Shown here piece by piece: positions 18,574 to 30,063 of a stretch of 64,000 nt of DNA; positions within the stretch are counted from its first letter, which is position 1; every line of letters begins with the position of its first letter. The position numbers were made by a program, and so were the translations under genes. Under the pieces are notes generated by a model, which was not told where the DNA came from, did not search any database, and saw only the letters and a program-made list of their open reading frames with translations. Source of the stretch: Dehalococcoidia bacterium (GTDB lineage: Bacteria; Chloroflexota; Dehalococcoidia; UBA6926); the NCBI GenBank assembly GCA_965214725.1, contig OZ243973.1, positions 801,938-865,937 of the forward strand, in the 5' to 3' direction.

Positions 18574-19640
18574 CGCAGCAAGTCAGGGCTCTCCGCCACC
18601 CGCGCCGCCGCGCTGAGCGGTGAGAGCTCCCCCGCCTCCACCCGCCGCGTCATCTCCGCCAGCGCGCCATCCCCCTCCGCGCGCGCCAGCCGCTCCAACA
18701 GGCGGTCCCGCAGCGCCGTGTGAAACTCCACCCGCCGCTGCGCCGCGCGCCGCTCCTCAAGCCGCCCCGTCTCGCGCAGCGTCTCATGCCGATGCCCCAC
18801 CGCGTCCACCAGCTCATCCACACCGATCCCGCGGATGCCCTCCGTCTGCAGCACCGGTATCGTCCACCAGTCCATATCGCGGCTGCCGAGATGCGCCGTC
18901 ATCTCCAGGTCCGCCGCCATTCGCTTCGCGCCGGGGCGGTCTGACTTGTTGACGACGAAGATATCGGCGATCTCCAGCAACCCCGCCTTCATCGTCTGGA
19001 TCGCGTCACCCGCCTCCGGCACGACGACGACGACGACGCTGTCCACGGCGTGGAGAACATCGAGTTCCGTCTGCCCCACGCCCGCCGTCTCCACGATGAT
19101 GACATCCAGCCCGGCCGCGTCCAGCACACGCAGGGCGGACGGCACGATGGCGGACAGCCCGCCGGACGCGCCGCGCGTGGCCATGCTGCGGATAAACACG
19201 CCCGGGTCAAGGAAGTGGTCACGCATGCGGACGCGATCCCCAAGGATGGCGCCGCCCGTGAACGGGCTTGAGGGGTCAACGACGAGGACGCCAACCGTCC
19301 GGCCTCGAGCGCGCAGGCGGGCCGTCATTCCCTCCACGAGGGTGCTCTTCCCCGCGCCCGGCGGGCCCGTAATCCCCACGCGGTGAGCGCCGCCCGTGCT
19401 TGACGGCATTGTAGATTCCGCGGCTCCGCTATGCTCCGCTCGGAATGACAGAGGAGGGTGCGCGCTGTCCATCTCGCCCATGCCGACGCGCTCGGCGGGC
19501 GTGCTATCCCGCGCCGATAGATGGTTTGTGATGTGCTGCATCATCTCCTCGGCGCGCGCGTCACCCTTCTCAAGCAACGAGAGGATGCGCGGCGCGGCGG
19601 CAAGATCGCCGGTCAGCAGGCGACGTACAAGATCATCCAT
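18570..19640 (-). CDS. meaB: Methylmalonyl-CoA mutase-associated GTPase MeaB (ArgK family) with an unusually long linker containing a REP2-derived in-frame insert
   Basis: P-loop GITGPPGAGKSTLVEG and the VVDPSSPFTGGAILGDRVRM switch region typical of MeaB/ArgK. The N-terminal helix is followed by ~25 extra residues that coincide with a REP2 copy at 19412-19455. Confidence 0.8.
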   Translation of the reverse strand: MDDLVRRLLTGDLAAAPRILSLLEKGDARAEEMMQHITNHLSARDSTPAERVGMGEMDSAHPPLSFRAEHSGAAESTMPSSTGGAHRVGITGPPGAGKSTLVEGMTARLRARGRTVGVLVVDPSSPFTGGAILGDRVRMRDHFLDPGVFIRSMATRGASGGLSAIVPSALRVLDAAGLDVIIVETAGVGQTELDVLHAVDSVVVVVVPEAGDAIQTMKAGLLEIADIFVVNKSDRPGAKRMAADLEMTAHLGSRDMDWWTIPVLQTEGIRGIGVDELVDAVGHRHETLRETGRLEERRAAQRRVEFHTALRDRLLERLARAEGDGALAEMTRRVEAGELSPLSAAARVAESPDLLR

Positions 19641-19703
19641 GCCTTAAGGGTAGCGCATGGCGCGAGGGGAGTGGGGCGCCCCTCACCCCGGCCCTGGCGG
19701 GCC

Positions 19704-19740
19704 TCCCCTCATTCCCGCGCACGCGGGAATCCATCGGGGG
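19704..19740. repeat. REP1-family element
   Basis: cctcattcccgcgcacgcgggaatccatcggggg. Confidence 0.8.
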
Positions 19741-19757
19741 GCTGGTCCGGGGGGGTA

Positions 19758-20048
19758 TCAGTTGGGAAGGGTGAGTATGGCAACAAACATGGCGATGAAT
19801 CCCGCGAACATGCTGGCCCACATGAGGCCCAACATCACATTGATACGGGCGCCCAACCTTTCAATCTGTTGGCGGAGGGCCTCATCGCCCGTTTGCATGT
19901 CTTTGCGGAGGGCTTCAAAACCCTCGCGCGTTTCTTGGCGGAAGAGTATGTTGTGCCCCTGAATGTCATCGAGGCGCTTGTTCATCTGCTCGAAGGCGCC
20001 TTCGATCCGGGTCATGCGGTCGTTGTCTGTTGGTGTGCTTGTTGTCAT
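19758..20048 (-). CDS. Small XhlA-like protein (N-terminal coiled coil, C-terminal TM anchor), paralog 1
   Basis: MTTSTPTDNDRMTRIEGAFEQMNKRLDDIQG… ends in the hydrophobic LGLMWASMFAGFIAMFVAILTLPN. It is 55-85% similar to 20111..20374 and 25852..26178. Confidence 0.5.
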   Translation of the reverse strand: MTTSTPTDNDRMTRIEGAFEQMNKRLDDIQGHNILFRQETREGFEALRKDMQTGDEALRQQIERLGARINVMLGLMWASMFAGFIAMFVAILTLPN

Positions 20049-20082
20049 TGCCGTCGTTCCTCTCTACGACAGTGTACCAGGC

Positions 20083-20107
20083 GGGGGGCGGGGGGGGGGG
20101 GGGGGGG
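20083..20107. repeat. Homopolymeric G tract (G6-C-G18) between paralog 2 stop and paralog 1 start (35-60 nt upstream of the paralog 1 start codon)
   Basis: gcggggggcgggggggggggggggggggcgg. Confidence 0.7.
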
Positions 20108-20110
20108 CGG

Positions 20111-20374
20111 TCAGTTGGGGATGGTGAGGATGGCGATGAATCCGCCGACCATCGTCGCCCAGAGGAGGCCGAAGCCGATGAACATCATGTTCCGAAGGCC
20201 ATCAATCCGGCGGTCCATCGCATCAAGACGGCGGTCCATCCCATCAAAGCGGCGTTCCATGCTTTCGAACCGGAGGACTATCTGTTCCAAGGCGCCCTCG
20301 ATGTGGCTGATTCGTTCAGAATCCGGTGGGGGGGATGTGTCTGTTGTCATGACGGTCCCTCTCCTTCTGGGCAC
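20111..20374 (-). CDS. Small XhlA-like protein (coiled coil plus C-terminal TM), paralog 2
   Basis: MTTDTSPPPDSERISHIEGALEQIVLRFESMERRFDGMDRRLDAMDRRIDGL… ends in FIGFGLLWATMVGGFIAILTIPN. Confidence 0.5.
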   Translation of the reverse strand: MPRRRGTVMTTDTSPPPDSERISHIEGALEQIVLRFESMERRFDGMDRRLDAMDRRIDGLRNMMFIGFGLLWATMVGGFIAILTIPN

Positions 20375-20425
20375 AGTATAGCAGGGGCGTGTTGGGGGGG
20401 GCCTCCGCGCGGACGCAGGGCGCCT

Positions 20426-20466
20426 CCCCTCCCCTCATTCCCGCGCACGCGGGAATCCATCGGGGA
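20426..20466. repeat. REP1-family element
   Basis: cccctcattcccgcgcacgcgggaatccatcggggag. Confidence 0.8.
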
Positions 20467-20562
20467 GGGCTCCCGCCTGTCTCACCATTGGGGTGGCGTG
20501 GCATAGGGGGCCGGGAAGGGCGTGTTGGGGGGGCGATGCGTAGTGGAATGATGAATGGCGGC

Positions 20563-20600
20563 GGATGGATTCCCGTTTTCACGGGAATGAGGGGAGGGGG
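20563..20600. repeat. REP1-family element (variant cccgttttcacggg)
   Basis: ggatggattcccgttttcacgggaatgaggggag. Confidence 0.7.
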
Positions 20601-20619
20601 TGGGAATGACGGGATTGGA

Positions 20620-20640
20620 GGGGGGGGGGGGGGGGGGGGG
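20620..20640. repeat. Homopolymeric G tract (G21)
   Basis: ggag followed by 21 G, then atgagggg. Confidence 0.7.
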
Positions 20641-20741
20641 ATGAGGGGAGAAGAGTGTGGGGATGCGTTGGGGGCGGGAATGACGGGGATGGGAGTGGGG
20701 GTACGGGGGCAACATGTTGGGGGGGGGCTTAATGAGGAAGG

Positions 20742-20805
20742 GGGGCTGCCCTTGCGGGCAGCCCCCCTCTCTTTTCTCTCTCGGCTCTTCGTTCCCGTTT
20801 TAGGC
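20742..20805 (+). terminator. Strong GC hairpin (gggggctgccc-ttgc-gggcagccccc) followed by a T/C-rich tract; intrinsic-terminator-like, adjacent to the stop of the giant gene
   Basis: Perfect 11-bp stem with a tetraloop, followed by tctcttttctctctcggctcttcgttcccgtttt. Confidence 0.45.
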
Positions 20806-20834
20806 GGGAGCGCGTTGCCTTTGTGCGGCTTGGC

Positions 20835-23800
20835 TTATCCGCCGATCACTCCGTCACGCGTCGCGAACAGCAGGTAGCCCTTGCCCTTCTCAACAACCGC
20901 GCGATGCTCATCCATGGTGAACCCGTCCGTGGCCGTGCCGTTCGAGAAGTAGGTCTCGTACTGCGGCGGCGTCGCGGCTGAGTTCCACATCCGGATCATG
21001 CCCCAGCCGCTGTTCCCCAGCGCGCTCAGGTAGGCGTCCACCGGAACCATCGTCTCGTTGCCCGCGGGCGTGTAGCCGATGCTGTTCCAGCCGGCCGTCA
21101 CCGTGTACTGGGAGGGCGTGCGCTGGGGGCTGAACCGCTCTGTGAGCACCTTCACCGGATCGAACGTCGTGCTGCGGACAAAGTAGCCGCGCCCGTCAAC
21201 GATCTGTGTCAGTGTGCCCATCCATTCGCCGCTGTCGGCGTCCTTCCGTGCGAACTCCCAGATCTTCGTCTCGTTGTTCAGGCTCCAGACGTCCGTCACC
21301 ATCGATCCCTCAAGCACACCATCAATGCTCTTGTCCTGCGGGGTGCCCGGGATGGAGATGAGCGACCAGCCAGGGTTCACGGCAACCGATGCAGGCGCAG
21401 GCGCCGTGATCTTGAACACGTACCCGAACTTGCCCTCGTTGCCAGCCTCGTCCACGAAGTCGACGTTCAGGCGGTAGTTGCCGATGGCCAGGTCTGACAG
21501 GGCGACCACGTACCGAACGTGATTCGAGCTCTGCGCAGACCCGTCCTCAACTTCCCACGTCTCCGTCACTTCAACCATCGCGGCAGCCTTGAGCATGTCG
21601 TCGCTGTCAAGCGAGCCGGCTGACAGGCCCTCAAGGCCCAAGCCTGTGACGGTAACCATCTTCTTGGTGTCAGTTGACTTGTATTCGTCCCCGGTGCCTG
21701 TACCGTACTCGTTAGCCTCAGCAGCGAACTCGAAGTTGAGGAACACAACGTCATTGACCTCAATCGGCTGAGCAACCATGGGATCCGCGTCCTTGTCATA
21801 CACCCGTGCGGGGGGCATGCCGCCGTTCGCCTTGGTATCAAGCTCCCATGTGGACTTCATGCTCATACCATCATTGTCATTCGTATCCGTACCAGTGACG
21901 TGAACGGTGTACTTACCGCTAGCACTAGTTCCGCCAAGGTTCTCGGCCTTCCTGTTCGTGCTCACTGTCCACGTGTTGTCATCCGATGCGGCCCGCACAG
22001 ACAGTGGCTCGTCATAGGAGCCAAGCATCAAGCGTGCCTTCGGCGTCTGCTCGAGTTCCTCAGAGGCGACGATGGTGATTTCCAACTCATCATTGCTGAG
22101 CGGGTTGGCCACAGTCACCGTGAATACAGGAGCGAGCTCATCCACCGGCTTCGCCGTGTGATCGTTCCTGCTCTCGTTGCCAGCCAAGTCGCGCAGATCG
22201 CCATTGTCTATGTCGATTGTAGGTCGCGCATCGGTCGCCAGGTCGTTCTCAAGGGTCAAGAACAGAAGGTGCCTAGCGTCCTCACCATCGGCCATGTCGT
22301 CAGCGAGCCCGAGATCATCTCGAACGGCCACGCCGCCGACGGAACCAATCTTGCTACCGTTCGTGTTATCCAACCAAGTCACGCTGGTGACGCTGTTGCC
22401 GCTAACGCTGACATTCTGTGCATTCACGTCAGCCCCAGCGATGGCATCATCAAACACCAGCACGATGCCCTTCGTATTCTCGGTGACCAGTTCATAGGGA
22501 TCGCCATCGGAGCCGGCCTTGACGCTGACGCCCGTGAGAGCCTTCATCAGTTCCGGATCGATGTCATCCACCACGAACGTGTATGACTTCTTCGCCACGT
22601 TCCGCGCAAGGTCATACGCGGTGATATCGACTTTGACAGTCACGGTCTCCGGCTCGTCGTCGCCAGTGCCCTCTGCTGTCTGTACAGCACTGGTGACATC
22701 GAATTCAATCTCGTAACGCTCGCCATCAGTGATTTCGTCGTCGACATCTAGCTCAGCGGTGTCCCCGCCGTCCAAGTCGAGGACTGGCTCATCTTCGCCC
22801 TGACCGTACATTGCCATCCGCATGACGTGGTAGTGGCCATCACGGATCTCCTCTTCATGGGCATCCTCGGGGATGCCAGAGTCAGCATCCGTCACGTTGA
22901 AGAAGAAGGAGAAGTCATCATCCGCAACGTATGAACCGCTGGCGAGAGAGTTTCCGCCAATCGCCGGCGCAACAATGTCAACCTCTGTGCGTGCAGTGCG
23001 AGTGCCGGTGGGCTCCGCATCGCCATACCGAATCGTCACCGTGTCGCCATGCTCCACGCCGATAACGGCAGCCAGCAAAGCGTCCACCCTAGCACCCATC
23101 AGCCCAAGATTTCCTGTGTGACCGTTGATCGCATCAACAAGCGATACCGCCTGCATGCAATTCTTGTCTCTGTCGGCCATGTCGTCATCACCACAGAAGG
23201 AGTTGAAGACACCATCAATCTCGTCATCGCCCTGATCGGCCGTTCCAGTTGCCTGAACGGTTGCGAGCAAGGACGCAATGGTTCCGCTCGCCGCTTCTGT
23301 CGTGTAGTTCACCATGAACATGTCAGCCGTATCGGCCGTAGCCTCGTTGCCATCTTCAGCGACACTGCTCCCGTTAAGCGGGACCGCAACAGTAACAGTC
23401 CCATCGCTATTGACGGTCACCACATGATCGTTGGCCATGGTGGTCCGGACAGAACCATCGGTATCCACACCGGGCTTAAACATCACTTCCAAACTTCCGG
23501 ATACCAACGTATTCGCCGCTGAAACACCTGTAAGGTTGAACACCGCCGACGGCGCGGCAGCGATTGTGTTGGGATCATCCGGAGTCTCAGCGGTGTTAAC
23601 TGCTGGGGACACGACAGTAATCGTCTGCGCCTGAGCCTGTGGGGTCGGGACAAGGCCCGCGTAATCCGCAATCGCGTCCTTAAATTCCTTGCGGATGACT
23701 CCAAAGCGGCCAACAAACACACCAGAGTCTCGGGAGTCCGCAGCCGCAGGATCGAAACTTGTGATGTCGGTCCCGCCAAAGTTAGCAGCGCCGACACCGT

Positions 23801-24688
23801 TATCCAGTGCAGCATATGTGGCCAGGTTCTTCTCACTCACTGAGATCCTGATGGAACTCCGATCGGACGTGCTCGAGACCTCGACACGGCTCTTGTCCTG
23901 AAGGGTCTCAACTCTGTAATCGCTCGGATAAGTCAATGCATTTTCCCCAGCGGAGTCAAACCCGATTCGCAATGCTGGAACATACTCAACGTTATTCTCA
24001 GCAGCCGGCCTGTCCACAGTGGGTATTGAATCCCCTTCTTGAAGGTTAGGGATTAAGCCTCTATCTAGGTAGAGTCCGTCATTCGCTGTATTGATCCCAG
24101 CGAAGGCACCGCTCTGAAGGGCCCGCGTACCAACAAACTTGGCGGGAGCGGCCATTACCGGAGGGGTAGCACTGGGGTTAGCACGAACAGCCGGAAGGTA
24201 CCATCCAAGCTCAAGCTCGATATCTTCCCCATTCACAACACCGTCACGTGTATCATCACCGACGACCAAACTACCGAGAACCATTATCTCATCTGCTATG
24301 TCGTCAGCTGTGTCACGATCCGTGTCTAGACCCCGCGAAGCGAAGTCACCTACCAAATCACCGTTCGGCAGGTTAACGGCCACAGCAAAGCCAGCCGCTC
24401 CAGAGGAGGACGCCAAGCTGGGGTCGATCCTAAAAAGGGATCCACCAGGATTCGCATCTGGAAGGTTGGTGACGCGTCTTCGAGAGAGGTAACGGAGCCT
24501 GTCGTATCCGACACGTACTCGGTGCCCATGAGCTTTTCAAACGTTGAGCCAGTCTTCCCAGAGGGATTGGCGAGCTCATCGGGGGTAACGATTTTGACGT
24601 TACCGGCGGCTGCGCCGGCCCCGATGGCCGGGATCATGGCGAACGCGAGGATCGCGACCGTCAAGATAATGAGTGCTTTGCGCTTCAC
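20835..24688 (-). CDS. Very large (~1280 aa) acidic secreted/cell-surface protein with a Sec signal peptide; apparent frameshift near 24470-24500
   Basis: Signal peptide VKRKALIILTVAILAFAMIPAIGAGAAAG (GTG at 24688 after a GGAAGGGGG RBS) is in the frame of ORF 24350..24841. That frame switches to the 1193-aa ORF 20835..24416 around 24470-24500. The body is D/T/G/V-rich with repeated beta-rich segments (Ig-like/adhesin- or S-layer-like composition). No LPXTG sorting signal. Confidence 0.6.
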
Positions 24689-25179
24689 AGGAAGCCCCCT
24701 TCCGTAACTGTGATGTGGGCCACGGTTGCGGCCCGTCTTTCCAAGTGTAGTGGAATGTGCGGAATTCGTCACGCCGTCCGGTGTGGGGCTGCGTGACTGC
24801 CAAGGTTCTCGTGAACGCATCCTGCTCTCCTCCCGATCCATCGGTGGACGGTCCCGCGCTGGTCTCCGTCTCTCTCGGTCTCTCTCTATCCCACTCTTCT
24901 CGCTCTGTCAGCCGCCTGCCCGTCTGGCCATTCGTCAATCCATCTGCCAGCCGGCGTGATGCGTCTGAGCGAGTAACGATGCAACACAAAGCGGACAGCC
25001 CGCGTCCGGGCTTAATCCACTAAGCGCGACTATAGGCGAGATGGAGGGGGGTTGTCAATAGTGCGGGGTCAGCAGATGAGGGCAATTTGGGGGCTGTTTC
25101 AGATAGGATTTCCAAAAACAGGTTCAGAACCAGTTCAAGAAAGAGGGGCGCGGCGGGGGGCTTTGTCCGTCAACATTCT

Positions 25180-25223
25180 GGATTCTTCGGCTCCGCGCTA
25201 TCGCGCTGCGCTCAGAATGACAT
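25180..25223. repeat. REP2-family element, long form
   Basis: ggattcttcggctccgcgctatcgcgctgcgctcagaatgac. Confidence 0.75.
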
Positions 25224-25240
25224 GGGGGAGGGGGCCCCAC

Positions 25241-25413
25241 TGTCATGCCGGGCCTCTCACTGTCATACCGGGCCTCCCACTGTCATTCCGAGCCTCCCAC
25301 TGTCATTCCGGGCCCCCCACTGTCATTCCGAGCGCCCTTCATGTCATTCTGAGCGCGCCATGTCATTCTGAGCGCCCTTCATGTCATTCTGAGCGCAGCG
25401 AAGAATCCCGCAG
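25241..25413. repeat. Tandem array of ~8 units of ~20 bp derived from the REP2 half-site (cactgtcattccgRgcYYcc … atgtcattctgagcgc), ending in a full REP2
   Basis: Contiguous units with no spacers (minisatellite-like; not CRISPR). Confidence 0.8.
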
Positions 25414-25430
25414 GCCGCCTATCAGCCCCA

Positions 25431-25727
25431 TTACCAGTCACGCGCCAAATCAATCCACCGAGGGTTCGTGGATTCTATGAGGGCGATCTTCTTGCTACGC
25501 AGCCACCCCTTGATCTGCTTTTCGCGCTCCAACGCCACCTTGACGTCTGAGGTCTCCTCAAAGTAGACCAGCCAATTGATCTTGTACCTGCTGGCGAAGC
25601 CGGGCGTGAGGCCCTGTTTGTGCTCATGGATGCGCCGCTGGAGGTCCCTGGTCATGCCGACGTACAGCTTGTGCCTCGGGTTCGACAGGATGTAGACGAA
25701 GTAACGATGCTCTTGTCTGTTGTTCAT
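25431..25727 (-). CDS. GIY-YIG nuclease family protein (~98 aa, stand-alone GIY-YIG domain)
   Basis: …YFVYILSNPRHKLYVGMTRDLQRRIHEH… is the GIY-YIG motif. The six-frame ORF's N-extension is a translation of poly-G/REP and is rejected; the ATG at 25727 is used. Confidence 0.75.
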   Translation of the reverse strand: MNNRQEHRYFVYILSNPRHKLYVGMTRDLQRRIHEHKQGLTPGFASRYKINWLVYFEETSDVKVALEREKQIKGWLRSKKIALIESTNPRWIDLARDW

Positions 25728-25736
25728 GCTTGTTGG

Positions 25737-25765
25737 ATTCTTCGCTGCGCTCAGAATGACATATG
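25737..25765. repeat. REP2-family element, short form
   Basis: ggattcttcgctgcgctcagaatgacat. Confidence 0.8.
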
Positions 25766-25830
25766 GGGCCAGAATGGCGTATGGCGGGGCGTGGCGGGAA
25801 TGGGGGGACGGGAGGGGCGTGGCGGGAATT

Positions 25831-25849
25831 GGGGGGGGGGGGGGGGGGG
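25831..25849. repeat. Homopolymeric G tract (G19) immediately 3' of paralog 3
   Basis: gggaatt, then 19 G, then tatcag. Confidence 0.7.
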
Positions 25850-25851
25850 TA

Positions 25852-26178
25852 TCAGTCTGCGAGGGTGAGGATGAAGACGTACAGAGCGATGAATCCGGCA
25901 ACCGTCGTGACCCACATGATGCCCCCAATCATCAAGTAGAGGCGGTCAGCGACTCTATAGATCTTCTCGTCGAGCCGGACAACATCCTCGCGCATGTCTT
26001 TGCGGAGGGCATCAAGACCTTCGCGCGTATCCTTGCGGAGGGAGTCAAAACCTGCGTGCGTCTCTTGGCGGAAGAGTGTGTTTTGCCCTTGGATGTCATC
26101 GAGGCGCTTATTCATCTGCTCGAAGGCGCCTTCGATCCGGGTCATGCGATCGTTGTCTGTTGGTGTGCCTGTCGTCAT
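25852..26178 (-). CDS. Small XhlA-like protein (coiled coil plus C-terminal TM), paralog 3
   Basis: MTTGTPTDNDRMTRIEGAFEQMNKRLDDIQGQNTLFRQETHAGFDSLRKD… ends in YLMIGGIMWVTTVAGFIALYVFILTLAD. Confidence 0.5.
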   Translation of the reverse strand: MTTGTPTDNDRMTRIEGAFEQMNKRLDDIQGQNTLFRQETHAGFDSLRKDTREGLDALRKDMREDVVRLDEKIYRVADRLYLMIGGIMWVTTVAGFIALYVFILTLAD

Positions 26179-26179
26179 C

Positions 26180-26300
26180 GTCGTCGTTCCTCTGCGGACA
26201 ATGCGGCACGCGCGAGCGGGGAGGGAGGTGGGGGTATCAGGTCCGCGAGGGTGTGCCTGTCGTCATCGTCGTCGTTCCTGTGTAGGACAGTGTAGCACGC
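26180..26300. repeat. Partial duplication carrying a second copy of the paralog start (MTTGTP…) fused directly to a paralog 3' end (…tcaggtccgcgagggtg) — a deletion/recombination remnant of a fourth paralog
   Basis: gtgcctgtcgtcatcgtcgtcgttcct occurs at 26165-26200 and again at 26255-26290; the 3'-end motif occurs at 26225-26250. Confidence 0.55.
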
Positions 26301-26328
26301 GCGAGTTGGGGGGCGGGGCGGCGTGCCG

Positions 26329-26410
26329 GATGGATTCCCGCTTTCGCGGGAATGAGGGGAGGGGGGCGGGCGTGGCGGGAATGAGGGGAGGGAGGGCGGG
26401 AATGGGGGGG
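26329..26410. repeat. REP1-family element followed by two degenerate half copies
   Basis: ggatggattcccgctttcgcgggaatgaggggagg … ggcgggaatgaggggag … gggcgggaatggggg. Confidence 0.75.
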
Positions 26411-26431
26411 GGCGTCAGGCGGGTGGGCAAA

Positions 26432-26467
26432 TGGGTGCCCGCCCACGTCTCCCCTGAGGGAGACGTG
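26432..26467. terminator. 16-bp-stem hairpin (cccgcccacgtctccc-ctga-gggagacgtgggcgg) just 3' of the rho stop
   Basis: Perfect inverted repeat. Confidence 0.45.
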
Positions 26468-26486
26468 GGCGGACGGTGGCGGCCGC

Positions 26487-28295
26487 TTAGATCTCTCTTG
26501 AGAGGGTGGCCATGAACTCGGCGTTCGTCTTGGTCTTGCTGATGCGGTCCAGAATCCGCTCCGTGGCGTCTGAGGCGTCCAGGTTGGAGTTGGACAGCAT
26601 CGCCATCATGCGGCGCAGGGTGACGATGCCGCGGTACGTCTGGTCATCATACAGCCGCTCGTCCCGCCGCGTGCTGGACTTGAGCACGTCAATGGCCGGG
26701 TAGATGCGCCGCTCTGCCAGTTTGCGGTCCAGGTGCACCTCCATGTTGCCGGTGCCCTTGAATTCCTCGTAGATGACATCATCAAGCCGGGAGCCGGTGT
26801 CGACGAGGCACGTGGCGACGATGGTGAGGGTGCCGGATTCTTCCGTGTTGCGCGCGGCGCCGAAGAAGTGCTTGGGGGGGTACAGCGCGACGGGGTCCAT
26901 GCCGCCGGAGAGCGTGCGCCCGGAGGATGGGGCGGCAATGTTGTAGGCGCGCGCAAGTCGGGTGATGGAATCGAGCAGGATGACAACGTCCCGCCCGGCC
27001 TCAACCAGACGCTTGGCGCGCGCAAGAACCAGCTCGGCAACGCGTGTGTGCTCTTCAACGGGCTCGTCAAAGGTGGAGGCCATAACCTCGGCGCCCTTGA
27101 CGGTGCGCTCCCAGTCCGTCACCTCTTCCGGCCGCTCGCCGATGAGGGCCGCCATGATGTGGGTGCTGGGGTATTTGGCGGTGATCGCATCAGCGATCTG
27201 GTGGAGCAGGATGGTCTTGCCGGCCTTGGGTGGGGAGACAATCAGGGCGCGCTGCCCAAAGCCGATGGGGGCGATGAGGTTCAGCAGTCGCGCCGCAACA
27301 GCCTTCTGGCTGGTCTCCAGGTCATAGAGCCGGTCCGGGAAGAGGGCGGTCAGCTGGTCAAAGATGGGCCGACGCCGCGCGATCTCCGGCTCCTGGCCGG
27401 TGACGGCGTCAACACGGAGGAGGCCGTAGTATTTCTCACCGCTCTTGGGGGAACGGACGTGGCCGGTTACCCAGTCACCGGTGCGCAGGCCGAATCGCCT
27501 GACTTGAGATTGCGCGACGTAGACATCATTGATGTTGTGGCGGAGTGTGCGGTGCCGGATAAAGCCGTAGCCGTCATTGGTGATCTCTAGGATGCCGCTC
27601 GCGCTGATGGTGCCGCCACGCTCACCCAAGGTCTGGATGGCGCGATGCACCATCTCGTCCCGCCGGACAATGGCGCTGGCAGACATGCCGAGGAATTCGG
27701 CAAGGCGGGCGGCCTCGTCACGGTCGAGGGACTCAAGCTGCGGGATGGTGACACTGCGCAGTCCCTCCGGGAGGGAGGCGGCACGGGCGGCGCGCTCAGC
27801 CTCGCTCATCTCGTTGGACTCGTCAGGCTCAGGGCGCTGGCGTGGCGGCCGGTCACGGTCCGGCCGGCGGCGCGATGGGGCGCCGTTGGCAGAGCGGGGA
27901 CGCTGCGGGCGCCGGACGGGGGCCGGCTCATCATCAACAACAAAGTCATCAGCCGACGGCGCGTCCGGTGACATGGTGGCGGGGGGGAGTCCCTCCGTGA
28001 TGGAGGGCGTGCCATTGGTCGTGGACGGGGAGGCGGCGGTGACGCCGTTGGCCGGGGGCGCGTCGACTGTATCAGGGCGAGTGGCAACGGCAGCGCCGTT
28101 CTTCTCGGTGACGGCCTCATCAGTCACGGCATCACTTGGTGCGGCGGTGGCTGTGGCGCGGCGCGTGCGTGGCGGGCGGGCAATGCCGCGCCGTGTCACG
28201 GGGCGCTGCGGCTCGTCCGGGGTCGGGGTATCTGTCGTGTCCACGAAGGTCTCCTTTAGTGGGTGCTGCGGGCCGCTTTGCTGTGCCCGCCACAT
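26487..28295 (-). CDS. rho: Transcription termination factor Rho with a long Arg/Pro/Asp-rich N-terminal insertion domain
   Basis: The C-terminal ~420 aa contain the Rho cold-shock-like RNA-binding region, Q/R loops and the RecA-like ATPase. An N-terminal ~200-aa low-complexity extension precedes it. The ATG at 28295 lies immediately after the pyrG stop; the further-upstream part of ORF 26487..28589 overlaps pyrG and is rejected. Confidence 0.8.
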   Translation of the reverse strand: MWRAQQSGPQHPLKETFVDTTDTPTPDEPQRPVTRRGIARPPRTRRATATAAPSDAVTDEAVTEKNGAAVATRPDTVDAPPANGVTAASPSTTNGTPSITEGLPPATMSPDAPSADDFVVDDEPAPVRRPQRPRSANGAPSRRRPDRDRPPRQRPEPDESNEMSEAERAARAASLPEGLRSVTIPQLESLDRDEAARLAEFLGMSASAIVRRDEMVHRAIQTLGERGGTISASGILEITNDGYGFIRHRTLRHNINDVYVAQSQVRRFGLRTGDWVTGHVRSPKSGEKYYGLLRVDAVTGQEPEIARRRPIFDQLTALFPDRLYDLETSQKAVAARLLNLIAPIGFGQRALIVSPPKAGKTILLHQIADAITAKYPSTHIMAALIGERPEEVTDWERTVKGAEVMASTFDEPVEEHTRVAELVLARAKRLVEAGRDVVILLDSITRLARAYNIAAPSSGRTLSGGMDPVALYPPKHFFGAARNTEESGTLTIVATCLVDTGSRLDDVIYEEFKGTGNMEVHLDRKLAERRIYPAIDVLKSSTRRDERLYDDQTYRGIVTLRRMMAMLSNSNLDASDATERILDRISKTKTNAEFMATLSREI

Positions 28296-28299
28296 GTCA

Positions 28300-30063
28300 T
28301 CAGCGCGTGGCGGTCGTCTCTCTGGGTGGTGTTGCGTGTGGATGCTGCTCAGCGTTGTTGTTGGGGGAACGATGGGATGATGCATCAACGCGCTGGGCCG
28401 GGTGGGCCATGCCGTCTTGCGCGACGATGAGGGGTGGCTGCTCGCCGGCGCGGAGGATGCCGGCGGCAACGGAGACGAATTCCCGGAAAAGGGGATGGGC
28501 GCGCGTGGGCCGGGATTTGAATTCCGGGTGGAACTGCGTCCCAAGCATGAACGGATGATCACGCGCCTCTGAGATCTCAACAAGGTCAAGCTCCCGGTAG
28601 GCGCCGCTCACAATGAGGCCCGCCTCCTTAAAGGAGGCACGATAGGCGTTGTTGAATTCAAAGCGGTGCCGGTGCCGCTCAATGACGGTCTCCGGATCAC
28701 CATACGCATGGGCGGCAACGGTGCCGGGCGTGAGGTGGCAGAGGTAGGAGCCGAGGCGCATGGTGCCACCCTTGGCGCGGACACGCTCCTGCTCCTCCAT
28801 GATGTGGATGACAGGATGAGGCGTCCCGACATCAAACTCGGTGGAGTTGGCGCCGCTCAGACCGGCGACGCTGCGCGCAAATTCAATGACCATGATCTGC
28901 ATACCAAGGCAGAGGCCCAGATAAGGGATACGCTGCTCACGAGCGTAAGACGCGGCGCGGATCATTCCCTCGATCCCGCGAGACCCGAAGCCGCCCGGGA
29001 CAACGATGCCGTGCGCACGGGCGAGCCGTTCCTCCCAGCCGTCCACCTCCAACTCCTCCGCAGATATCCAATCAATGTCAATGTCCACGCCGATCTCAAG
29101 ACCGGAGTGGGTGAGCGCCTCCCGAACGGAGAGGTATGCATCACGCAGTTCAACATACTTGCCGACAATCGCGACGGTGAGCGGCGGCTTGGGTTCCTCA
29201 AAGCGCTGGACAAGGTCCCGCCAGTCATCGAGACGCGGCTCCATCTCCGCATACCCATCAAGCTTCATCCTGTTTAAGAGGTAGTCGCCAAGTCCGCGCT
29301 CCTCAAGCAGCAGCGGGACGCGATAGATGGTATCCACCGTCGAAAGCGGGATGACAGCCTGCGGCTCAACATCACAGAACAGGGCGATCTTCTCGATGGT
29401 TTCCTGCGTGGTCTCCACCTCGCTGCGGGCAATGATGACATCCGGCAGGATGCCGGCGCTGCGCCCAAGCTCACGGACGGAGTGCTGTGTCGGCTTTGTC
29501 TTGAGTTCGCCGGTGGCGTGGAGATACGGCAGATACGTCACATGGACAAAGATGGCCTCAGTCCGACCGAGTTCGTTGCGGACCTGGCGAATCGCCTCAA
29601 GGAACGGCTGCCCCTCAATATCACCAACGGTTCCGCCCACCTCGATGATGATGACCTCCGCGCCGGACTCGTCCGCAACCTGCCTCATGCGGTTCTTGAT
29701 GGAATTCGTGACATGGGGGACAACCTGGATTGTGCCGCCGAGGAAATCACCGCGCCGCTCACGGGAGAGCACGGATGAGTACACCTGGCCGGCCGTGACG
29801 CTGGACGCGCGTGTCATCTCGGCATCGACAAATCTCTCATAGTGGCCGAGGTCAAGGTCCGTCTCCGCACCATCACCCGTCACAAACACCTCCCCATGCT
29901 GGTACGGAGACATGGTGCCTGGATCGACGTTGAGATAGGGGTCAAGCTTCTGAACTGCGACCTTGATGCCGCGGCTCGTGAAAAGTCGGCCAATGGCAGC
30001 GGCCGTGATTCCTTTACCGATGGAACTAACGACGCCGCCTGTCACAAAGACGTACTTTGCCAT
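28300..30063 (-). CDS. pyrG: CTP synthase PyrG with a ~45-aa C-terminal extension
   Basis: MAKYVFVTGGVVSSIGKG synthetase N-terminus; glutamine amidotransferase domain with GLCLGMQ. Confidence 0.9.
   Translation of the reverse strand: MAKYVFVTGGVVSSIGKGITAAAIGRLFTSRGIKVAVQKLDPYLNVDPGTMSPYQHGEVFVTGDGAETDLDLGHYERFVDAEMTRASSVTAGQVYSSVLSRERRGDFLGGTIQVVPHVTNSIKNRMRQVADESGAEVIIIEVGGTVGDIEGQPFLEAIRQVRNELGRTEAIFVHVTYLPYLHATGELKTKPTQHSVRELGRSAGILPDVIIARSEVETTQETIEKIALFCDVEPQAVIPLSTVDTIYRVPLLLEERGLGDYLLNRMKLDGYAEMEPRLDDWRDLVQRFEEPKPPLTVAIVGKYVELRDAYLSVREALTHSGLEIGVDIDIDWISAEELEVDGWEERLARAHGIVVPGGFGSRGIEGMIRAASYAREQRIPYLGLCLGMQIMVIEFARSVAGLSGANSTEFDVGTPHPVIHIMEEQERVRAKGGTMRLGSYLCHLTPGTVAAHAYGDPETVIERHRHRFEFNNAYRASFKEAGLIVSGAYRELDLVEISEARDHPFMLGTQFHPEFKSRPTRAHPLFREFVSVAAGILRAGEQPPLIVAQDGMAHPAQRVDASSHRSPNNNAEQHPHATPPRETTATR

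Follow-up and report, generated by a model that had tools for sequence, protein, structure and literature searches.

Hypervariable alleles that are shuffled by recombination are known from the sap S-layer cassettes of Campylobacter fetus, from pilE/pilS of Neisseria and from the giant, strain-specific surface proteins of marine bacteria. The gene described here, which lies on the minus strand of a 64-kb stretch of DNA (the window), belongs to a family that resembles these systems. An invariant leader and N-terminus and an invariant C-terminus enclose a centre that is wholly different between near-identical strains, the segments of this centre have differing nearest relatives, and an allele breakpoint falls within a short conserved stretch. 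Unlike in these systems, neither silent cassettes nor inverted copies were found in the 64-kb window, and no invertase or recombinase is adjacent to the gene. Also, in contrast to sap and pilE/pilS, the variation is seen between strains, being known from strain comparison rather than within a clone.

Other known cases are instructive as well. Like dnaX and the IS3-family transposases, the window gene shows two overlapping frames that need a -1 shift to be fused. In contrast to them, it has no slippery site, no stimulatory structure and no conserved arrangement, and its two frames meet at a 73-nt deletion. Its single lesion against a background of intact orthologues, the loss of conserved residues and an otherwise open ORF are also features of ordinary recent unitary pseudogenes. 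From these it does not differ in kind; its only peculiarities are which gene is hit and that the lesion lies at an allele-exchange boundary. As to the product, the members of the family share with the SbsB/SbsC-type S-layer proteins of Geobacillus a signal peptide, a mass of 120-150 kDa, a pI of about 4, almost no Cys, an Ig/FN3-like chain, a single gene copy, a strong promoter-like site and a long leader. They differ from SbsB/SbsC in having no SLH domain or other known anchor and no Pfam, NCBIfam or PDB sequence match, the structural likeness being generic. Dehalococcoidia are reported to bear S-layers (PMC10284905, PMC10444878). For the present family, a lattice and high abundance are putative, the strong promoter-like site and the long conserved leader being the only indirect hints of them.

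The coordinates which an earlier, sequence-only reading had given for both ORFs were all rechecked and are correct. On the minus strand, the signal-peptide ORF (frame A) runs from the GTG at 24688 to a TAG at 24352-24350 and overlaps by 184 nt with a 1193-codon ORF in the -1 frame (frame B). The latter is open from 24536, after a TGA at 24539-24537, has its earliest start codon, a TTG, at 24416 and stops at 20837-20835. The step from frame A to frame B is a -1 shift, i.e. one base is missing modulo 3. Homology follows this change of frame: in tblastn, the orthologue P0002 matches frame A with its residues 1-127 (24820-24449, E 1e-52) and frame B with its residues 151-1334 (24458-20838, E 0). 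Judged by these matches, the two-frame coding layout is far beyond chance. The main features of the locus are collected in Table 1. Upstream of the start codon, the Shine-Dalgarno-like element occupies 24703-24695, leaving a spacer of 6 nt to the GTG, and the predicted promoter stretch is 100% identical to that of loci L001 and L024. In some orthologues the leader is translated by the gene callers as MRSREPWQ..., other orthologues being called from the GTG. The signal peptide, with its KRK n-region, hydrophobic core and Ala/Gly-rich end, was recognized by eye and not by a predictor. An Rfam scan of 19000-27000 returned one sub-threshold chance match only.

Table 1. Features of the disrupted gene and its surroundings, 5' to 3' along the gene (positions in the window).
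Feature	Position	Strand	Evidence
Sigma-70-like promoter (predicted), TTGACA-18-TATAGT, 11/12 matches, ~340 nt 5' of the start codon	25029..25058	-	Consensus scan only
Long conserved 5' leader, including Shine-Dalgarno-like GGAAGGGGG	24689..25028	-	98-100% nucleotide identity to loci L001 and L024
GTG start and signal-peptide-like N-terminus, VKRKALIILTVAILAFAMIPAIGAGAAAG	24602..24688	-	Same GTG/VKRK start in 21/21 orthologous loci
Conserved N-terminal module, frame A, NVKIVTPDELANPSGKTGSTFEKLMGTEYVSDTTGSVTSLEDA	24473..24601	-	Aligns to all homologues; tblastn match in frame A
Deletion junction, 73 nt missing between the two bases	24472..24473	-	Three-way DNA alignment against L001 and L002; homologues
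Out-of-frame tail of frame A, SPTFQMRILVDPFLGSTPAWRPPLERLALLWPLTCRTVIW*	24350..24472	-	Without homologues; annotated within the 156-aa P0038
Gene body, frame B; 1211 stop-free codons, of which ACC at 24470 is the first full one, then stop	20835..24471	-	
Hypervariable central region	21627..24620	-	Identity profiles; nucleotide identity to a near-identical relative's allele 35-70%
Conserved C-terminal domain, 193 aa, ending ...GKGYLLFATRDGVIGG	20838..21416	-	98% identical to P0002 and P0003
G+C-rich perfect hairpin, 70-95 nt 3' of the stop, possible transcript end	20739..20768	.	Pattern scan only

A three-way DNA alignment revealed a 73-column gap in the window gene against both L001 and L002. 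The lost DNA amounts to 24 codons plus one base, and the junction lies between 24473, the last base of a GCG (Ala) codon, and 24472, where the TC remnant of a TTC Phe codon begins. This gap size rests on the three-sequence alignment together with the protein evidence, a 22-sequence MAFFT DNA alignment having misaligned the window across the gap. The lost codons encode GGTLYVVIEDNDxxxNxLTDYYAY, followed by the first base of the Phe codon. This motif is found at residues 72-74 in 21/21 orthologous loci, shows no length variation and is nearly invariant across the 33 homologues, with D70, G73, T74, L75, V78, D81, N82, D83 and N87 each conserved in at least 90% of them. When the intact orthologue P0007 is modelled with AF2 (pLDDT 80), the residues missing from the window gene form strands 74-80 and 89-96 of the first domain. 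The missing segment is absent elsewhere in the 64-kb window. Clear microhomology is lacking at the junction: with an ACGCG repeat as its cause, the loss would be 69 nt instead of 73.

One possibility raised by the sequence-only reading was a sequencing indel that a correction of 1 nt would repair. Because the gap measures 73 nt and includes 24 conserved codons, such a correction would fuse the frames without restoring the protein, the most conserved motif of the family still being absent. Its suggestion of a recent inactivating mutation fared better, as inactivation is supported by the orthologues, while the lesion turned out to be a 73-nt deletion.

The orthologues were drawn from a comparison set of 33 homologous proteins and 21 homologous loci. 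In each of these loci the gene is one uninterrupted ORF of 1130-1420 aa that begins at the same GTG, and about 20 homologues span 100% of an artificially fused query as a single protein. Such a lesion occurs in none of the 21, several of which are contigs with the same naming style. Synteny is kept (CTP synthase - rho - X - meaB), with gene X in single copy. Judged from synteny and alignment, the locus is one gene, not two, namely the local orthologue of a single-copy exported protein of sponge/coral-associated Dehalococcoidia with genomes of about 2 Mb. In the public annotation it appears as P0038, of 156 aa, and P0001, of 1149 aa and called from an internal ATG; one disrupted gene would be a better annotation than these two hypothetical proteins. 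As far as the alignments go, the disruption takes away both conserved sequence and reading frame in comparison with the intact orthologues, as in a pseudogene or null allele.

We consider it probable, at roughly 0.6, that the window gene is a recently and genuinely deleted, and thus broken, copy of the gene for a single-copy envelope protein. Four parts make up the intact protein: the signal peptide is followed by a short N-terminal module that is invariant, then by a hypervariable, strain-specific chain of β-sandwich domains and finally by an invariant C-terminal domain. In this genome, the 73-bp deletion would have taken out 24 nearly invariant codons and one base. Ribosomes starting at the normal GTG would then produce a 112-residue signal-peptide fragment ending out of frame, and the 1211-codon body would lack both a start and an export signal. 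The lesion appears to be recent, since the body contains no further stops. Over the last 243 codons, 6 non-synonymous and about 5 synonymous differences separate the window from L001 and L024, the direction of change not being polarized. The open body and the C-terminal differences would fit a very recent event as well as an artefact.

The deletion is probably present in the cells rather than in the assembly alone, and the dropping of a conserved stretch is unlike the expected consensus error. A less likely explanation, which we hold only tentatively, is that the gene is intact in the organism and that 73 nt were lost when reads from the alleles of co-occurring strains were collapsed or polished. 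The locus is indeed strain-variable, one sample holds two coexisting alleles with identical flanks, and in a related sample one contig breaks off 1.9 kb upstream of the gene. Also in keeping with such a fault, the body ORF is fully intact, the lesion lies at the border of the variable region, and each of the junction-bearing products, P0038 and P0001, has been seen in a single contig, no independent assembly having the same junction. However, nothing in the gene is better conserved between alleles than the lost stretch, and a mixed consensus should be best aligned there. The gene is intact in all 21 other loci, among them the contigs of the same naming style and both alleles of the two-allele sample. 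Moreover, over the 500-700 nt on its flanks the window agrees with independent assemblies at 100% identity and without indels, so that random indel error is low. Two further points speak against a real deletion: the loss of a single-copy coat protein might be deleterious, and at a strain-variable hotspot an assembly or polishing fault would look alike.

Very improbable, in turn, is the existence of two genuine genes or of a shortened but functional protein whose translation begins internally (at the TTG at 24416 or the ATG of the 1149-aa product), although the public gene calls do give two proteins. Two genes had been envisaged for the case that orthologues were also split, which holds for 0 of the 21 orthologous loci. 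The tail of frame A and the head of frame B are out-of-frame translations without homologues. A product from an internal start would have neither a signal peptide nor a hydrophobic segment, though the family always has a signal peptide.

Of its three alternatives, the sequence-only reading leaned towards testing a programmed or regulatory frameshift, in view of the contingency-like repeats around the gene, and it suggested a search for a slippery heptamer. In favour of such a frameshift are the overlap of 184 nt, the two frames of which a -1 shift would fuse, and the long poly-G tracts nearby. In this search, no X_XXY_YYZ heptamer was found in the 0 frame of frame A (24688-24350). The sole heptamer-like run, CCCTTTT at 24439, does not fit the register; it is also 3' of the point where homology switches (24473/24472), past the change to frame B homology (24467). 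The longest homopolymer run in the overlap is 5 nt. The RNA downstream has an MFE of -40.1, the shuffles averaging -36.8 (z -0.96); of 200 shuffles, 35 fold equally well. The G18-G21 tracts (20090-20107, 20620-20640 and 25831-25849) come after the stops of small genes in the neighbourhood and lie neither in the gene nor in its promoter-to-start interval (25058-24688). A phase-variable contingency gene was also considered and rejected, on the run lengths in the overlap and the position of the G tracts. A product fused by a frameshift would still be without the two conserved β-strands. Given the lack of frameshift signals, the single ORFs of all orthologues and the loss of 73 nt, two genes are rejected and a programmed -1 frameshift or slippage-dependent contingency regulation, joining the signal-peptide ORF to the body, is scarcely credible. 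The frameshift as such is therefore of little weight, an ordinary disabling deletion or an assembly fault.

Strains that agree at 97-100% in the flanks share only 35-70% identity over the central ~3 kb, and the N-terminal third of this region is its most divergent part. The closest allele of the variable region is only 53-67% identical, and a closer one from which the pre-deletion sequence could be rebuilt was not found in the genome or metagenome contig collections. The deletion lies where the invariant N-terminal module gives way to the hypervariable part. Because in another strain pair, L001/L024, the 5' allele breakpoint falls inside the very segment deleted in the window, the deletion would most simply result from imprecise recombination or repair at a cassette boundary. 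It is conceivable, if rather doubtful, that a cassette exchange keeps re-assorting the surface coat between strains of sponge-associated Dehalococcoidia and has its 5' crossover site in the invariant 73-nt stretch. The window would then represent a genuine imprecise crossover and a coat-less null lineage within the host, which would have lost its major surface protein naturally, under phage or host-recognition pressure. As the family differs completely between strains with identical flanking DNA, it could serve as a marker for strain tracking, and it is a target for studying phage or host recognition of uncultured symbionts.

Read from 24470, the body comprises 1211 aa, with a mass of 128 kDa and a pI of 4.1. 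It is rich in D (10.5%), A (10.8%), G (9.5%) and T (8.7%), has 2 Cys and contains neither an LPXTG motif nor a hydrophobic stretch. The expectation of a large, acidic, exported product without LPXTG is thus borne out by the composition, the signal peptide again being a judgement by eye. This composition is typical of S-layer proteins, and the combination of a Sec-type signal peptide, as seen by eye, with a large, acidic, low-Cys protein is what is expected of them. Pfam and NCBIfam scans of both ORFs and of one intact orthologue gave nothing, save a sub-threshold T7SS match (E 0.015) that was disregarded, and no recognized cell-wall anchoring module (SLH, CWB2, etc.) was detected by them. A profile search against PDB sequences gave chance matches only (E >0.1). 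The fold is a chain of multiple Ig/FN3-like β-sandwiches; its Foldseek matches include 5ftx (SbsC) and 4aq1 (SbsB) at E ~1e-6 and are generic (TM up to 0.25). Plausibly, the family protein is an S-layer or cell-coat protein.

More useful than the frameshift is a by-product of the analysis, the definition of an unannotated family without a Pfam or NCBIfam model, with only about 36 relatives among 5.8 billion protein clusters. For the cell-coat protein of Dehalococcoidia associated with sponges and corals, this family is the best candidate. In the case of the C-terminal domain, the AF2 model is of low confidence (pLDDT 61) and Foldseek found no fold match. The same domain is also found alone, in a 303-aa paralogue (L022).

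The large minus-strand gene is distributed over two reading frames, one carrying the signal peptide (frame A) and the other the body of the protein (frame B). They overlap over 184 nt, and a -1 shift leads from A into B. The N-terminus encoded in frame A, VKRKALIILTVAILAFAMIPAIGAGAAAG, is signal-peptide-like. In tblastn, an intact orthologue matches frame A with its residues 1-127 (E 1e-52) and frame B with its residues 151-1334 (E 0). Because the match to one uninterrupted protein is divided in this manner, the two-frame structure is real in the sequence, far beyond chance, and the layout proposed by the sequence-only reading is confirmed. That reading had also rightly described a large, acidic product, rich in Asp, Thr and Gly and lacking LPXTG: the body product has 128 kDa, a pI of 4.1 and 2 Cys, with abundant Asp, Ala, Val, Gly and Thr, and scanning it revealed neither an LPXTG motif nor a hydrophobic segment.

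Positions in the window of the two-frame gene and of the surrounding genes and repeats
Feature	Position	Strand	Remarks
Upstream signal of frame A, GGAAGGGGG	6 bases before GTG 24688	minus	
Frame A	start GTG 24688; end TAG 24352-24350	minus	open throughout
Frame B	open after TGA 24539-24537; first start codon TTG 24416; stop 20837-20835	minus	1193 codons from TTG
Three paralogous small genes	19758-20048; 20111-20374; 25852-26178	minus	87-108 aa
200-nt direct repeat	19864-20063; 25994-26193		85% identical
G homopolymer tracts	20090-20107; 20620-20640; 25831-25849	plus-strand G	18-21 nt; poly-C on the coding minus strand
REP-like palindromic elements, CCTCCCCTCATTCCCGCGCACGCGGGAATCCATCGGGG	19702-19739; 20428-20465; 20562-20600; 26327-26365		
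Small GIY-YIG nuclease-domain gene	25434-25727	minus	Pfam E 6e-15; adjoins the hypervariable gene
Repeat regions listed with the GIY-YIG gene	25236-25400; 25728-25769		
rho ORF	26487-28589	minus	700 codons open

For the homologue search, an artificially fused protein (frame A plus frame B) was used as query. This gave 36 strong relatives, about 20 of which span all of it in one polypeptide of 1260-1420 aa; the public calls for the window's gene are two fragments of 1149 aa (P0001) and 156 aa (P0038), each recorded on a single 1,868,702-bp contig. After the N-terminal module, all homologues read ...LEDA-GGTLYVVIEDNDxxxNxLTDYYAY-FT..., and the stretch between LEDA and FT shows zero length variation and contains several nearly invariant columns of the family. 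In its place the window has LEDA followed directly by (T)C ACC, i.e. ...VTNLPDANPGGSLFRIDP. DNA alignment against two syntenic loci showed a gap of exactly 73 nt, corresponding to 24 codons and the first base of a Phe codon, with the junction between 24473 and 24472. The missing piece was not found in the rest of the 64-kb window. The 21 orthologous loci that were retrieved represent about 20 Dehalococcoidia species, with chromosomes mostly of 1.85-2.45 Mb. Every one of them has an uninterrupted ORF with the same GTG start and the motif at residues 72-74; the split layout is thus absent from these orthologues. According to an AlphaFold2 model (mean pLDDT 80) of P0007, which is an intact orthologue, two β-strands of the first domain (74-80, 89-96) are made up of the residues deleted here, so that a 1-nt repair would fuse the frames without restoring the protein. 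The simple 1-nt indel suggested initially therefore does not hold.

The deletion lies in a hypervariable gene. Compared to the closest relative, locus L001, identity is 99-100% over the 500 nt upstream and 97-100% over the final 700 nt of the gene but drops to 35-70% in the central 3 kb (~24620-21627), and the nearest relative of the window's allele changes from segment to segment. The G+C content of the variable part (21700-24400) is 0.50-0.58, compared to 0.62-0.70 in neighbouring genes and intergenic repeats. L001 and a further orthologous locus, L024, come from one metagenome (ENA sample ERZ25070917, both contigs labelled 13x) and carry different alleles between flanks that are 98-100% identical; the contig of L024 begins just 1.9 kb upstream of the large gene. 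Both observations indicate that the locus separates co-occurring strains and breaks assemblies. The 5' identity breakpoint between L001 and L024 falls inside the 73-nt stretch absent from the window. The deletion thus took a short conserved stretch at the border between an invariant leader module and a variable cassette, a position compatible with imprecise recombination or repair. No convincing microhomology was detected at the junction, where an ACGCG repeat would account for 69 lost nt instead of 73.

We consider a genuine recent deletion, leaving a null allele or pseudogene that is possibly polymorphic, the best explanation, with a probability of roughly 0.6. The stretch lost is the best conserved one between alleles and hence the one that a mixed consensus would be expected to lose last. 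Moreover, none of the 21 other loci, including contigs named in the same style and the two-allele sample, shows such a lesion, and the flanks match independent assemblies base for base. An assembly artefact is a less probable but serious possibility: the locus is a hotspot of strain variation at which a related contig ends, the other 1211 codons are fully intact, and the junction is present in no second assembly. Of the three interpretations offered from sequence alone, only the inactivating mutation survives, albeit as a 73-nt deletion rather than a point indel.

Two genuine genes, or a product from an internal start, were rejected as very improbable. A programmed -1 frameshift or contingency slippage joining the frames is least credible of all, and the proposed regulatory role was rejected: no X_XXY_YYZ heptamer occurs in frame A across the whole overlap (the sole heptamer-like run, CCCTTTT at 24439, is out of register and 3' of the homology's switch to frame B), homopolymers there do not exceed 5 nt, the 120 nt 3' of the junction fold like shuffled sequence (z -0.96), and no orthologue conserves the arrangement. 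The supposed coupling to contingency-like repeats fails likewise, as the long poly-G tracts begin 2-3 nt past the stops of small neighbour genes (20111-20374, 25852-26178) and are absent from the large gene and from the interval between a promoter-like site (25058-25029) and its start. Matching positions in related loci hold C10-C26 (L001 5022, 10773; L024 318, 932, 6579, 6920), thus tract length differs between strains. The tracts may represent C-rich 3' ends that resemble Rho-utilisation sites, mutable sequence or places prone to sequencing errors.

The small paralogous genes, which combine a coiled-coil N-terminal part with a C-terminal hydrophobic helix, are arranged in direct orientation around the large gene and its GIY-YIG neighbour; they match no Pfam family, and the 64-kb window contains no other copies. 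REP-like elements occupy the intergenic DNA on either side of the large gene, two copies being 100% identical and the others inverted (88-95%); in Rfam, one copy gave a sub-threshold chance match (Pab91, E 0.16). Tandem repeats of 20 nt, with the core TGTCATTCCGAGC, come after the GIY-YIG gene, with an inverted copy at its 5' end. A GIY-YIG gene also adjoins the large gene elsewhere, upstream in L001 and L024 and downstream in the orthologous locus L002. In the rho ORF, a long Pro/Ser/Ala/Arg-rich N-terminal extension precedes the Rho RNA-binding and ATPase parts; orthologues are called at 587 and 626 aa.

As far as frameshifting goes, the case is an ordinary one. The family to which the gene belongs, an unannotated, strain-hypervariable coat-protein candidate of sponge-associated Dehalococcoidia, is by itself of moderate interest. 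The gene is single-copy, within a conserved order of CTP synthase, rho, the small genes or GIY-YIG gene, the large gene and meaB. Searches of Pfam, NCBIfam and PDB sequences with its protein returned no relatives. The predicted structure is a chain of β-sandwich domains, for which the Foldseek matches were generic: Ig/FN3 chains (contactin, titin, α2-macroglobulin) and, among them at E ~1e-6 and with low TM, the S-layer proteins SbsC and SbsB of the Geobacillus type, likewise built of β-sandwich domains. S-layers have been observed on Dehalococcoidia cells (PMC10284905, PMC10444878). Taken with general properties of the gene, namely the signal peptide, an acidic, Cys-poor composition, the single copy, and the strong promoter-like site with its leader of ~340 nt (100% conserved between strains), this makes the protein a candidate S-layer or cell-coat protein. 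For the conserved C-terminal domain (193 aa), the model has low confidence, and a fold search gave no match. A 303-aa paralogue consisting essentially of just this domain is encoded in another Dehalococcoidia MAG (locus L022, OZ250138.1, 5899-6810), without an obvious signal peptide and distant from the main locus; it shares 38% identity with P0007 residues 880-1127.
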